Counted from the stretch's first letter, positions 1 through 4,392 are shown. The stretch: 4,392 nt of DNA from a virus (IMGVR_UViG_648276671_000011); one strand, 5' to 3'. Program-made: numbers and translations. The notes: a model not told the origin generated them from the letters alone.

Positions 1-149
1 AATCGAAATCGACACCGAAAAATAAAACATCAAGTCATATCAATATATTGCATTGGTGGTGATGACGAATAAAAATGCAAAAACTAGCCTTTTTCCGCGA
101 TGCTCCCGCCCCGTGGCAGGGCACCCCACAAGGAGGACCCGCCATCACT

Positions 150-491
150 ATGGAGGCCATGACCATGACCATGACCATGACCATGACCATGACCATGACC
201 ATGACCATGACCGAGACCGAAGCGCTCGGGATAATCCGCAGTATTACCGGAATCAGCCAGCAGGCTGGCGAACAGGAGGCCACGCAGCCGGACAGCGTGA
301 TAGCCGAAAATTACGCGCGTGTTGTTGCTGAGGTGATGCGCCGTGATGGTATTGAGCTTAACGGCGTGGATATGCGCAACATACGAACCAGAGTCCTTGA
401 GTTGCTGGCATACCGTCGCCGTTCTCAACAACGGAGGGAGAGCGCGAAAAGTACTTACCAGTGGAAGAAGCCGGAACGACTGCGGCGGTAA
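150..491 (+). CDS. Hypothetical small protein (113 aa from ATG150; 138 aa if ATG75) with N-terminal (Met-Thr)9 repeat and a basic Arg/Lys-rich C-terminus
   Basis: ORF-track frame 75..491. AGGAGG at 131..136 lies 13 nt upstream of the in-frame ATG at 150. Downstream sequence (...ARVVAEVMRRDGIELNGVDMRNIRTRVLELLAYRRR...) is protein-like. Three other frames also read through the repeat (53..331 +, 35..283 -, 84..431 -), so strand and frame are not certain. I do not recognise the family. Confidence 0.45.
   Translation: MEAMTMTMTMTMTMTMTMTMTETEALGIIRSITGISQQAGEQEATQPDSVIAENYARVVAEVMRRDGIELNGVDMRNIRTRVLELLAYRRRSQQRRESAKSTYQWKKPERLRR
158..211. repeat. Perfect hexanucleotide microsatellite (CATGAC)x9, with one degenerate unit at 212..217
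   Basis: Directly counted: nine identical CATGAC units, 54 bp. Encodes (Met-Thr)n in the frame of the 150..491 ORF. Confidence 0.97.
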
Positions 492-675
492 CTTGCTGAT
501 ATTCCCGATAACGCAAAATTGCGTTGGCTGGTGGGTGAGTTGCAGATTTGCAACTCGACCATGAAACTACGGAAACTACCCGTAGTTTGGGTAGTAAGAG
601 TAACACCCAGATTTTGGGGCTTACTCGCGATACCCAAATAAAGGGTATCGGTGGAAGAAATATCGTTTCTCATAT

Positions 676-714
676 GTAAGTACCGAGGGCGGAATTCCGC
701 CTTCGGTTACTTAT
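676..714. repeat. Long imperfect inverted repeat (about 17 bp stem, one bulge) centred on the perfect 14-bp palindrome GGCGGAATTCCGCC (688..701)
   Basis: Hand base-pairing: 688..701 is its own reverse complement; flanks 676..687 pair with 702..714 with one bulged T and two G-T pairs. Confidence 0.6.
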
Positions 715-732
715 TGTGCTCATGCACAGGGA

Positions 733-793
733 GGGGCGGGTCAAAATCTCTGTACCCTGACGTCTTCAGGACTGCCCGCCCCATCGATTTTTT
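733..793 (+). terminator. Candidate intrinsic terminator: GC-rich stem GGGGCGGG (733..740) / CCCGCCCC (775..782) with a large loop, then T6 (788..793)
   Basis: 8-bp G/C stem enclosing a ~34-nt loop that has its own small hairpin (CCTGA..TCAGG); T-run starts 5 nt after the stem. The loop is larger than a classic terminator, so this is tentative. Confidence 0.3.
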
Positions 794-1048
794 ATACCCG
801 CGAAAAATGAAAAACGCTTCACGCTGGTGGGCCTGATGCCGATATGGGGAGCCGCATACCGGAGAATATCCACCAGCACGGCAACAGCAGAATAGCCCCG
901 ACACAGAAAAACCACGAATATGGGGTTTTTGTTATGGCATGGTCATGATGACCGCCCCTGCTCTGAATGGTGGAAATCACCACGCAGATCATCCACCAGC
1001 TTCATGACGGATAGCCGGAAAATGATAATGATTAAAGCGTGTTGATCT

Positions 1049-1075
1049 TTGTTCGCGGTTGTTCGATATTGTTCG
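1049..1075. repeat. Three copies of TTGTTCG at exact 10-bp spacing (1049, 1059, 1069)
   Basis: Direct reading: tTTGTTCGcgg TTGTTCGata TTGTTCGtga. One helical turn between copies, as in phased binding-site arrays. Confidence 0.6.
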
Positions 1076-1081
1076 TGAAGC

Positions 1082-1105
1082 GGTGTAGTTAATGGTGTAG
1101 TTAAT
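1082..1105. repeat. Perfect 12-bp tandem duplication GGTGTAGTTAAT x2
   Basis: 1082..1093 is identical to 1094..1105. Confidence 0.85.
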
Positions 1106-1115
1106 ATCACTGTTT

Positions 1116-1143
1116 TTGACGGGCTTGTTATTTGCAACATAAT
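1116..1143 (+). promoter_or_regulatory. Candidate sigma70 promoter upstream of clpS: -35 TTGACG (1116..1121), 16-bp spacer, -10 CATAAT (1138..1143)
   Basis: Hexamers read by eye; would give a ~130-nt 5' UTR before clpS. An inverted repeat TGATAG-N4-CTATCA (1178..1193) lies inside that leader. Not validated. Confidence 0.3.
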
Positions 1144-1278
1144 GAAAAATAAAGACTAATTAACTAAATGATATAAATGATAGTTATCTATCATGTGGAG
1201 TAGATTGGTCAGGCAAATAAGCTCTTGTCAGCGGCAGGGCGTTCTGCCGATAACCGTAACCGAAGATGATAACTGACA

Positions 1279-1629: not shown

Positions 1630-3906
1630 ATGCTCAATCAAGAACTGGAACTCAGTTTAAATATGGCTTTCGCCAGAGCGCGCGAGCACCGTCATGAGTT
1701 TATGACCGTCGAGCACTTGTTACTGGCGCTGCTCAGTAACCCATCTGCCCGGGAGGCGCTGGAAGCGTGTTCTGTGGATTTGGTTGCGCTCCGTCAGGAA
1801 CTGGAAGCCTTTATTGAACAAACCACACCCGTTCTGCCTGCCAGTGAAGAGGAGCGCGACACACAGCCGACGCTGAGTTTTCAGCGTGTACTGCAACGTG
1901 CGGTCTTCCATGTCCAGTCCTCCGGTCGCAATGAGGTTACCGGTGCAAACGTTCTGGTCGCTATTTTTAGCGAACAGGAGTCGCAGGCGGCATATCTGTT
2001 GCGTAAACATGAAGTCAGCCGTCTCGATGTGGTGAGCTTTATCTCTCATGGCACGCGTAAAGACGAGCCGACACAGTCTTCTGATCCTGGCAGCCAGCCA
2101 AACAGCGAAGAACAAGCTGGTGGGGAGGAACGTATGGAGAATTTCACGACGAACCTGAATCAGCTTGCGCGCGTGGGAGGAATCGACCCACTGATTGGTC
2201 GTGAGAAGGAGCTGGAGCGTGCTATTCAGGTTCTCTGCCGTCGCCGTAAAAACAACCCGCTGCTGGTGGGGGAATCTGGTGTCGGTAAAACCGCGATTGC
2301 GGAAGGTCTTGCCTGGCGAATTGTTCAGGGCGATGTGCCGGAAGTGATGGCTGACTGTACGATTTACTCTCTCGATATCGGTTCTCTGTTAGCGGGCACA
2401 AAATATCGCGGCGACTTTGAAAAACGTTTTAAAGCGTTGCTCAAGCAGCTGGAGCAGGATACTAACAGCATCCTGTTTATTGATGAGATCCACACCATTA
2501 TCGGTGCGGGTGCAGCCTCTGGTGGCCAGGTCGATGCGGCTAACCTGATCAAACCGCTGCTCTCCAGCGGTAAAATTCGCGTAATTGGTTCGACAACCTA
2601 TCAGGAGTTCAGCAACATTTTCGAGAAAGACCGTGCTCTGGCGCGTCGCTTCCAGAAAATTGATATTACTGAACCGTCGATCGAAGAAACTGTTCAAATC
2701 ATCAATGGCCTGAAACCGAAGTATGAAGCGCACCACGACGTGCGTTATACCGCAAAAGCGGTGCGTGCAGCGGTAGAGCTGGCGGTGAAATACATTAACG
2801 ATCGTCATCTGCCGGATAAAGCCATTGACGTTATCGACGAAGCGGGCGCTCGCGCACGCCTGATGCCGGTAAGCAAACGCAAGAAAACCGTTAATGTGGC
2901 GGATATTGAGTCCGTGGTGGCCCGTATTGCGCGCATTCCAGAGAAGAGTGTTTCGCAGAGTGACCGCGATACCCTGAAAAACCTCGGCGATCGCCTGAAA
3001 ATGCTGGTCTTCGGTCAGGATAAAGCCATTGAGGCGCTGACTGAAGCCATTAAGATGGCGCGTGCAGGTTTAGGTCACGAACATAAACCGGTCGGTTCGT
3101 TCCTGTTTGCAGGCCCTACCGGGGTCGGGAAAACAGAGGTGACGGTACAGCTTTCGAAAGCTTTGGGCATTGAGCTTCTGCGCTTTGATATGTCCGAGTA
3201 TATGGAACGCCATACCGTCAGCCGTCTGATTGGTGCGCCTCCGGGATACGTTGGTTTTGATCAGGGCGGTTTGCTGACTGATGCGGTCATCAAGCATCCA
3301 CATGCGGTGCTGCTGCTGGACGAAATCGAGAAAGCGCACCCGGACGTGTTCAATATTCTGTTGCAGGTGATGGACAACGGTACGCTGACCGATAACAACG
3401 GACGCAAAGCGGACTTCCGTAACGTGGTATTGGTGATGACCACCAACGCTGGGGTACGAGAAACTGAGCGTAAATCGATTGGTCTTATCCACCAGGACAA
3501 CAGTACCGATGCGATGGAAGAGATCAAGAAGATCTTTACGCCGGAGTTTCGTAACCGTCTCGACAACATTATCTGGTTCGATCATCTCTCCACCGACGTG
3601 ATCCATCAGGTAGTGGATAAATTCATCGTCGAGTTGCAGGTTCAGTTGGATCAGAAAGGTGTTTCTCTGGAAGTGAGCCAGGAAGCGCGTAACTGGCTGG
3701 CCGAGAAAGGTTACGACCGGGCAATGGGCGCACGTCCGATGGCGCGTGTCATCCAGGACAACCTGAAAAAACCGCTCGCCAACGAACTGTTGTTTGGTTC
3801 GCTGGTGGACGGCGGTCAGGTGACGGTTGCGCTGGATAAAGAGAAAAATGAGCTGACTTATGGATTCCAGAGTGCACAAAAGCACAAGGCGGAAGCAGCG
3901 CATTAA
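1630..3906 (+). CDS. clpA: ClpA, ATP-dependent Clp protease ATP-binding/unfoldase subunit (two AAA+ modules), 758 aa
   Basis: Translation from ATG1630 ([24 protein letters not shown]...) matches E. coli ClpA as recalled. Walker A motifs GESGVGKT and GPTGVGKT are present. GGAGG at 1619..1623 sits 6 nt upstream of ATG1630; the ORF-track start at 1615 is a TTG and is less likely. Confidence 0.97.
2122..2136 (+). promoter_or_regulatory. clpA: Internal ribosome-binding site GGGGAGG (2122..2128) plus in-frame ATG (2134..2136, Met169) for the shorter ClpA65 form
   Basis: SD-like GGGGAGG 5 nt upstream of internal Met169 codon (seen). Internal initiation at Met169 producing a truncated ClpA is established for E. 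coli ClpA. Confidence 0.6.
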
Positions 3907-3930
3907 TCTGATTGTCAGGTAGGTTGGTGA

Positions 3931-3969
3931 AGTCCGTAATCTCGAAAGAGGTTACGGACTTTTTGTTTG
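3931..3969 (+). terminator. Rho-independent terminator of clpA: 13-bp stem AGTCCGTAATCTC / GAGGTTACGGACT (one T-G pair), GAAA loop, then TTTTTGTTTG
   Basis: Hand-paired hairpin starting 25 nt after the clpA stop, followed directly by a T-rich tract. Confidence 0.75.
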
Positions 3970-4118
3970 TAGGCTGGGGCGGTGAAAACCCTATTTTTGG
4001 AGGTGAAGGTAAGTTGTTGATAATTAATGGTGCTGGAAGGTAAGAATAAAAAAGGGTGGCAGCAGGAAAATGAGATGGTTTTGCTTTATTAATAACGGAC
4101 TAAACGTGTAGTATTTGA
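3970..4118 (+). promoter_or_regulatory. AT-rich putative CRISPR leader
   Basis: ~150 bp AT-rich segment immediately 5' of the intact repeat; the degenerate repeat is at the far end, consistent with leader-to-array polarity on the + strand. No promoter hexamers confidently assigned. Confidence 0.4.
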
Positions 4119-4206
4119 GTTCACTGCCGTACAGGCAGCTTAGAAAGCCAACCGAAAGAAAAACTCGATTTTTATACCGTTCACTGCCGTACAGGCAGAT
4201 AAAATG
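4119..4206 (+). CRISPR. Orphan type I-F mini-array: repeat 1 (4119..4146, GTTCACTGCCGTACAGGCAGCTTAGAAA), 32-bp spacer (4147..4178, GCCAACCGAAAGAAAAACTCGATTTTTATACC), degenerate terminal repeat 2 (4179..4206)
   Basis: 28-bp repeat with the Cas6f-type hairpin core CTGCC-GTACA-GGCAG matches the E. coli/Yersinia I-F repeat consensus from memory. Second copy is identical for 20 nt then degenerates. Spacer length of 32 is typical. No cas genes in the window. Confidence 0.85.
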
Positions 4207-4208
4207 CG

Positions 4209-4244
4209 AAAAAAAAACTCGTACTTTCGTACGAGCTTTTCTTT
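4209..4244. terminator. Bidirectional intrinsic terminator: A9 (4209..4217), 7-bp stem CTCGTAC / GTACGAG with TTTC loop, then CTTTTCTTT (4236..4244)
   Basis: The hairpin is flanked by an A-run on one side and a T-run on the other, so it can terminate + strand (CRISPR) and - strand (tRNA side) transcription. Confidence 0.6.
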
Positions 4245-4249
4245 AAATA

Positions 4250-4267
4250 TGGCGGTGAGGGGGGATT
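4250..4267 (-). pseudogene. 3'-terminal fragment of a tRNA-Ser(GGA)-like gene (acceptor 3' strand plus part of the T-arm); the rest of the tRNA is not present downstream
   Basis: TGGCGGTGAGGGGGGATT is the reverse complement of ...AATCCCCCCTCACCGCCA, the 3' end of E. coli tRNA-Ser (serW/serX type) as recalled. From 4268 the sequence no longer follows the tRNA, and no complementary acceptor 5' strand (CCTCACC on +) is found in the next 125 nt. Confidence 0.5.
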
Positions 4268-4392
4268 GACTCGCTTCGCTCGCCCTGCGGGCAGCCCACT
4301 CACTGTGTTCGTGGTCTGTCCAACTGGCTGCGCCAGTTGTCGAACCCCGGTCGGGGCTTCTCGATCCCCCCTGGAGTGCAATATGCGAAAAA

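Follow-up and report, generated by a model that had tools for sequence, protein, structure and literature searches.

An apparent insertion footprint 3' of Escherichia coli serW very probably marks the period of a tRNA-Ser-linked RtT repeat array

The closest described system is the tyrT locus, where a 178-bp unit is reportedly repeated 3.14 times, each copy with the last 19 nt of tRNA-Tyr. At tyrT of K-12, four RtT matches of about 135 bits were found with a 178-bp period, and each of them ends in the tRNA-Tyr 3' end followed by the tRNA's own spacer. We take these matches to be the classic tyrT repeats, that is, the rtT RNA (rttR). To our knowledge, the only published proposal for a role of the RtT RNA is a link to the stringent response, known from a second-hand mention. 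A literature search for Ser-linked RtT units or for an RtT function, with the classic tyrT papers outside its range, returned nothing beyond citations of tyrT rtT. One of these is in PMC3318445, where Bosl & Kersten 1991 is cited for tyrT rtT. Units labelled RtT sRNA by PGAP also lie in the ycdU-serX-ghrA intergenic region, next to serX. A further point of comparison is a short DNA site, the 14-bp direct repeat TGGCGGTGAGGGGG, which is used by the integrases of OI-43, OI-48 and SRL-PAI according to PMC3064760.

The stretch of DNA analysed here (the window, 4,392 bp) is from E. coli, with clpS at 1279-1599 and the end of clpA at 3906 as placed by an ORF map and similarity searches. Along the window, clpS-clpA is followed by a two-repeat type I-F CRISPR relic and then by the region 3' of serW. 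In K-12, clpA and the CRISPR relic are followed by a terminator that leads directly into serW, the tRNA-Ser(GGA) gene on the minus strand. The feature under study sits 3' of serW and is therefore to be read on the minus strand. No complete tRNA was found in the window by ARAGORN.

The part of the window upstream of clpS (1-1278) is accessory, and at least 80% of the whole window is covered in 288 of 5,426 E. coli genomes. An ORF at 75-491 matches the phage family phrog_1561 (E = 2.6e-50). In strain F374, genes for a capsid, a head-decoration and a small-terminase protein are located just left of the region that matches window 1-1278. This part of the window appears to be one end of a prophage or phage satellite that inserted next to clpS.

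The preliminary description had reported a near-identical 13-mer pair that brackets a terminator, a tRNA 3' fragment and a GC-rich segment, and both the pair and all three bracketed elements are present. The two copies (AAAATGCGAAAAA and AATATGCGAAAAA) are identical at 12 of 13 positions and lie 179 bp apart from start to start. The 10-mer ATGCGAAAAA within them occurs in the window only at 4204 and 4383, against 0.05 occurrences expected, and two matches were obtained in 1 of 200 dinucleotide shuffles, so the recurrence is not a product of chance. To the left of the two 13-mers the sequences are unrelated, indicating that the homology truly begins at the left end of the 13-mer. With the 179-bp spacing, the window contains 1.07 units. 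The 13-mer is very probably the first 13 bp of the next head-to-tail unit of about 179 bp downstream of serW. The features of the region are listed in Table 1.

Table 1. Features at the clpA-distal end of the window, with positions counted from its first base
Feature	Position	Strand	Description
CRISPR relic	4119-4206	+	type I-F; found between clpA and serW also in K-12
CRISPR repeat	4119-4146	+	Rfam CRISPR-DR4, 50.1 bits
CRISPR spacer	4147-4178	+	32 nt
Degenerate terminal CRISPR repeat	4179-4206	+	Rfam CRISPR-DR4, 29.7 bits; last 6 nt overlap the first 13-mer
13-mer copy 1	4201-4213	-	distal array edge; on the RNA strand, end of the terminator U-tract plus CGCAUUUU; homology boundary evident when internal junctions are set against this array end
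Complete tandem unit	4201-4379	-	179 bp: spacer/terminator, tRNA-Ser 3' end and RtT body
Terminator hairpin	4209-4244	-	intrinsic; 16-bp stem, GAAA loop, U9 tract, A-run on the opposite side; supported by RNA folding and, for the equivalent site in JCH8249, by a terminator scan
tRNA-Ser(GGA) 3'-terminal 18 nt	4250-4267	-	AAUCCCCCCUCACCGCCA; one C shorter than the serW 3' end AAUCCCCCCCUCACCGCCA
RtT-type structured RNA, Ser type	4250-4385	-	closing helix and inner hairpins; 3' end is the tRNA end with CCA
Closing helix, 3' arm	4258-4269	-	T-stem 3' strand and start of the acceptor 3' strand; pairs with 4361-4372
Closing helix, 5' arm	4361-4372	-	GGGGGGAU on the RNA strand; 1-nt insertion at 4363 found in the window only
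13-mer copy 2	4380-4392	-	first 13 bp of the next unit (end of the terminator U-tract); unit cut by the window edge

The first 13-mer overlaps the end of the CRISPR relic, and the 13-mers were considered as CRISPR direct repeats. This was rejected, as only copy 1 overlaps the degenerate terminal repeat and copy 2 has no CRISPR neighbour. The spacer of the relic differs from the K-12 spacer at the same site. No protospacer for it was found in 50,697 phage and 72,556 plasmid records, in which the sole full match was an E. coli chromosome filed as a plasmid. A stretch of the spacer (4153-4167, CGAAAGAAAAACTCG) is identical at 14 of 15 positions to the flank of the serW terminator (4207-4221, CGAAAAAAAAACTCG), besides being complementary to 4232-4244. 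The likeness to the terminator flank is probably due to chance because the sequence is A-rich, and the spacer was not retained as a source of the 13-mer repeat.

On the RNA strand, the unit starts with the 5' arm, which is followed by GAGAAG, a hairpin CCCCGACCGGGG with UUCGA, two to three more hairpins and GAGUCA. It ends with AUCCCCCC(C)UCACCGCCA, the tRNA-Ser 3' end, after which comes the serW terminator. The tRNA fragment reads TGGCGGTGAGGGGGGAT from 4250, and its first 14 bp (4250-4263) are TGGCGGTGAGGGGG, the same as the att direct repeat of the OI-43/OI-48/SRL-PAI integrase. The terminator is the native one of serW, the same hairpin being found right after serW in K-12, and one copy is present per unit. 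Compared with other serW units, the window unit has 96-99.5% identity in the unit alignment.

The minus strand of the window at 4250-4385 matches Rfam RF00391 (RtT RNA) over the full-length model (1-130), with 44.9 bits (E = 1.3e-6), the gathering score being 45. The orthologous copies in strain JCH8249 score 48.6 and 45.1 bits and carry the PGAP label RtT sRNA. The shortfall of 0.1 bit for the window copy is probably due to the 1-nt insertion at 4363, where the window reads CTCGATCC and all relatives read CTCATCC, between the closing-helix arm and GAGAAG. Either a private mutation or an error of sequencing could account for this insertion. An exact 35-mer spanning CTCGATCC was absent from the GTDB representative genomes and from metagenome contigs, and the window-specific variant was found in none of 5,426 complete E. 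coli genomes, the best body match there being 99.2%.

Several properties of the RtT family are seen. The array of related loci comes right downstream of serW, in the same orientation, and the tail of the unit is the tRNA 3' end with CCA. The organisation is tandem with a period close to 178 bp (179 bp in the window, 179 and 181 bp in relatives), and the multi-helix fold is closed by a 5' arm and a tRNA-derived 3' segment. The feature can be assigned to a known repeat and RNA family, which PGAP already annotates as RtT sRNA in many RefSeq E. coli genomes.

The Ser-type units were compared with those of tyrT. Both are tandem units of about 178-181 bp right downstream of a same-strand tRNA gene, and both contain the 3' end of the cognate tRNA with CCA, followed by the tRNA's own spacer. 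The blocks GAUGAGAAG, GACC, GGUUCGA and AAUCC and the closing-helix architecture are common to the two types. In contrast, the cognate tRNA is Tyr at tyrT and Ser(GGA) for the window type, the central hairpin sequences are different, and the overall identity is only about 55%. In the Ser-type units the spacer is a strong intrinsic terminator; on its tRNA strand, the tyrT array yielded no terminator-like site, and no tpr-like ORF is apparent in the Ser-type units. The Rfam scores of Ser-type units are 36-49 bits, near the cut-off, versus about 135 bits for the tyrT units. The two types differ exactly where the unit copies the tRNA or pairs with it (GGGGGGAU/AUCCCCCC versus GGGGAAGGAU/AUCCUUCCCC, and CCCC...GGGG versus CUUC...AAGG).

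The serX-linked units are much closer to those of serW. They have the same tRNA species, unit design, terminator and 14-bp core, with about 94% identity, but belong to another chromosomal locus and have a period of 181 instead of 179 bp. Fixed locus-specific substitutions also distinguish them, for example CCACGAAC...GUGG versus CCGUGAAC...GCGG, which is a compensatory pair.

The partial inverted symmetry noted near the ends of the bracketed segment proved real. The segments 4258-4269 and 4361-4372 are 92% complementary over 12 nt and form the closing helix of the RtT-type RNA. Among 49 distinct Ser-type units, 93.3% of the cells of a five-hairpin structure inside the closing helix are paired, versus 29-55% in slid controls, and compensatory changes are found in 14 pairs versus 3-8 in slid controls, with none of 500 shuffles reaching the observed values; these counts use the structure from a single-sequence fold, as RNAalifold missed hairpin 2 of the Ser-type alignment owing to gap placement. 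The MFE z-score of the RtT-type RNA is -5.2. One invariant G-U pair is compatible with the tRNA-sense strand alone, as are several G-U variants. The covariation and the strand-specific G-U pairs together indicate that the inverted symmetry is the closing helix of a structured RNA, of which the 3' strand is the tRNA fragment.

An ORF on the minus strand of the window (4181-4381) and the annotated protein WP_012602745.1 were considered as a protein-coding explanation of the GC-rich segment. This explanation was rejected on account of 1-nt indels, deletions of 12-15 nt and RNA-type covariation among homologues. WP_012602745.1 is a PGAP hypothetical protein of 132 aa, annotated at 2618-3016 in locus L006 and at 6487-6885 in the F374 locus (L012), which correspond to about window 4000-4385 on the minus strand and overlap both the RtT unit and the CRISPR relic. 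Since homologous units show 1-nt indels and RNA covariation, this annotated ORF is probably spurious.

The continuation past 4392 was deduced from close relatives, because the exact window variant was found in no collection searched. JCH8249 is 99.8% identical to the window over 3907-4392. Past the second 13-mer, its sequence goes on with a further full terminator, another TGGCGGTGAGGGGGGGATT tRNA fragment and another RtT body, after which a third terminator and a 14-nt tRNA fragment abut a tyrosine integrase gene. Tandem Repeats Finder gave a period of 179, 2.3 copies and 96% matches for this array. In six further strains, every junction of a body end with AATATGCGAAAAA runs through the full terminator and TGGCGGTGAGGGGG, and beyond this TGGCGGTGAGGGGG comes another body, intact serW or island DNA. 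The same junctions were inspected in L001 (JCH8249), L003, L006 and L012, always with the full terminator and TGGCGGTGAGGGGG.

In these relatives the match from 4214 onward therefore goes on, with no immediate divergence after the 13-mer. The second copy extends for about 63-68 bp (the full terminator plus 14-19 nt of the tRNA-Ser 3' end) in every related locus examined, and often a full unit follows, which agrees with the suggestion that it begins a larger duplicated block. The other suggestion, a target-site duplication or recombination scar around a discrete insertion, did not hold, as the shared stretch is about 63-68 bp within a 179-bp period and not 13 bp. The genome of the window would be expected to continue past 4392 with AAA(A)GCTCGCACTTTCGTACGAGCT(C/T)TTCTTT(A/G)AATA over about 50 bp, followed by TGGCGGTGAGGGGG. 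Beyond that TGGCGGTGAGGGGG, one would expect GGATTGACTCGC (another RtT unit), GGATTCGAACCCCC (serW) or ACCGCCTGAAAT (the junction of a serW-integrated island).

The number of units at serW was determined by landmark mapping. No unit is present in K-12, one is present in each of three strains (L004, L006 and L012) and two in each of three others (L001, L003 and L005). In island-free strains, the array is directly followed by intact serW and infA. A unit at serW was found in about 1,031 of 5,426 complete E. coli genomes (at least 80% cover of 3907-4392), and most of the other complete genomes match 3907-4392 only up to the tRNA fragment, where tRNA-Ser is annotated. The segment thus does occur as a discrete unit that is present or absent, in 0, 1 or 2 copies at serW; it does so as the unit of a tandem repeat, not as a mobile insertion.

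The RtT body sequence is present in 3,536 E. coli genomes, because a second identical tRNA gene, serX, bears the same kind of array. In K-12, the serX array has a period of 181 bp and 3.4 copies. The units are 98-99% identical within a locus and about 94% identical between serW and serX. The likeness within a locus, compared with the difference of about 6% between serW and serX, points to evolution or homogenisation in place.

The linkage to tRNA genes was surveyed by a degenerate pattern scan of 185,579 GTDB species-representative genomes, which gave 103 loci with 154 units. Nearly all of the loci belong to Enterobacteriaceae or Erwiniaceae (Enterobacterales), with Escherichia, Citrobacter, Klebsiella, Enterobacter and Pantoea among the genera, and the unit periods across Enterobacterales are 167-183 bp. 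An upstream tRNA on the same strand was present in the fetched locus for 132 units, and all 132 lie at most 800 nt from tRNA-Tyr(GTA) (81 units) or tRNA-Ser(GGA) (51 units). The remaining 22 of the 154 units are accounted for by truncated loci, an upstream unit missed by the strict pattern, or one chance match in Marivivens. An exact 13-nt tail is common to the unit and the tRNA in 110 of the 132 units, and in the 22 others listed the tail is of the matching tRNA type but one to a few nt off. The 5' arm tracks the T-stem of tRNA-Ser: CCCCGCC goes with GGCGGGG in E. whittamii and Citrobacter, and CCCCCTC with GAGGGGG in Pantoea, and CCCTCCC with GGGAGGG is also seen. The RtT-type units thus co-evolve with the tRNA and are under structural constraint.

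The only tRNAs behind which RtT-type units were found in the 103 loci, tRNA-Tyr(GTA) and tRNA-Ser(GGA), are both class-II tRNAs with long variable arms. The first hairpin of the unit and UUCGA together reproduce the cognate T-arm in its 5' half, giving the impression of a T-arm split by an insertion of about 70 nt. A contig of 426 bp from a Paenibacillus camelliae assembly (NZ_JAMBNY010000058.1; L019) carries a Tyr-type RtT unit typical of Enterobacteriaceae, and is probably contaminating DNA. Two tiny Citrobacter draft contigs (L057, 477 bp; L082, 423 bp) are collapsed RtT arrays.

The exact 14-bp core TGGCGGTGAGGGGG is present in every unit. In JCH8249 (L001 3702-5078; L116), a P4-type tyrosine integrase gene directly follows the RtT array, at the junction of TGGCGGTGAGGGGG with ACCGCC. 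The island there is larger than 50 kb and contains afa fimbrial genes, iro remnants, malX and IS elements. O111 strain 11128 has the same arrangement of array and integrase, at serX. The window resembles OI-43 and OI-48 of EHEC O157:H7 and SRL-PAI of Shigella in having their direct repeat at 4250-4263, and a near-identical strain has such an island beyond the array. In contrast to those repeats, the 13-mer is another sequence, 37 bp away from the core, the period and content of the unit are unrelated to island ends, and arrays without islands occur. The 13-mer as an integrase att-site repeat was rejected, as it differs from the 14-bp core and the segment it brackets is 166 bp long (4214-4379) and has no genes.

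The presence of the exact integrase repeat in each unit, and of an integrase gene directly beyond the array in JCH8249 and O111 strain 11128, would fit a model in which the units are att-site scars left by serial integration and excision of serW islands through a P4-type integrase with core TGGCGGTGAGGGGG, so that the integrase drives the copy number. We consider this very unlikely. Besides the 37-bp distance between the 13-mer and the core, arrays of one to two units are found beside intact serW without an island, and around the 3.4 units of K-12 serX the fetched region bears no annotated island gene. The tyrT arrays share this architecture but not the core, and the RNA-type covariation with G-U pairs in the body is unexpected for protein-binding arm sites. 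In both island-bearing loci the island lies between the array and the tRNA side, which means that the units are not the island ends.

A second model takes the unit as an integrative or episomal circle of about 179 bp, or a multimer of it, which recombines within the roughly 68 bp common with the tRNA 3' end and terminator and spreads horizontally from one tRNA locus to another. In formal terms, a filled site does amount to an empty one with a unit added between 68-bp direct repeats, and serW and serX, with identical tRNAs, both have Ser-type units. This model is nevertheless highly improbable, as the units carry locus signatures (98-99% alike within a locus but about 6% apart between serW and serX), where the tRNA varies between species the tail and the 5' arm vary with it, and neither a free form nor one on a plasmid turned up, with just 6-11 of over 8,000 places classified as plasmid. 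There is hardly any reason left to regard the GC-rich segment as a MITE-like element with GGGGGGAT/ATCCCCCC as terminal inverted repeats and the 13-mer as its target-site duplication: a direct repeat does surround a segment with inverted ends, and empty (K-12) and filled alleles do exist, but the duplication is about 63-68 bp and not 13 bp, one arm of the inverted repeat is the 3' end of the tRNA itself and varies as the tRNA does, the units of the 103 loci form tandem arrays, always behind tRNA-Tyr or tRNA-Ser(GGA), and none is dispersed, alleles differ by whole units, and no transposase is associated with them.

The preferred reading is therefore a head-to-tail array at the tRNA gene. The arrays are tandem, differ among strains by integer numbers of units, are homogeneous within a locus and are structurally constrained in the tRNA sense. 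The 3' end of the tRNA gene itself, together with its terminator, constitutes the first partial unit, and about 68 bp of identical sequence recur in each period. Each unit consists of an RtT-type body of about 110 nt, the last 18 nt or so of tRNA-Ser with CCA, which provides the 3' strand of the closing helix, and a copy of the serW spacer and terminator. As the copy-number polymorphism suggests, unequal homologous recombination or replication slippage between the stretches of about 68 bp may add or remove whole units, and the same events may keep the units of one locus alike (concerted evolution). The role of the tRNA 3' end and terminator as first partial unit would also keep the tails identical to the tRNA, and the 5' arm may then acquire compensatory changes through selection on the RNA fold.

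No promoter-like site was found inside the units on the tRNA strand, so transcription would have to come from tRNA read-through. By analogy with tyrT, the read-through RNA may be trimmed by tRNA 3'-processing enzymes to a stable CCA-ended RNA. Because a strong intrinsic terminator follows each Ser-type unit, distal units are probably weakly transcribed.

The linkage to tRNA genes, the concerted evolution and the strong covariation argue that the RtT RNAs are under selection. It is conceivable, although we think it rather unlikely, that the RtT-type units are a distinct, under-described class of tRNA-linked structured RNAs that mimic the 3' end of the tRNA acceptor and T-arm, or that they act at the DNA level. 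In such a class, the 5' arm and the first hairpin would follow the T-stem of the cognate tRNA through compensatory change. As mimics, they could for example be decoys for factors that bind tRNA 3' ends. At the DNA level, they could be spare att sites, or templates for repairing the tRNA gene, itself a hotspot of island integration.

What appeared as an insertion footprint reflects the period at which units of a known repeat family recur. RtT arrays vary in copy number among strains and adjoin an integration hotspot of pathogenicity islands. Since they are polymorphic, close to this hotspot and core-bearing, and collapse to tiny contigs in draft genomes, they can confuse the calling of island boundaries and genome assemblies. 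The survey yields concrete tRNA-linked RtT variants for functional study. The remaining interest lies in the biology of the RtT-type units, in their exclusive linkage to two class-II tRNAs and in their co-evolution with them.
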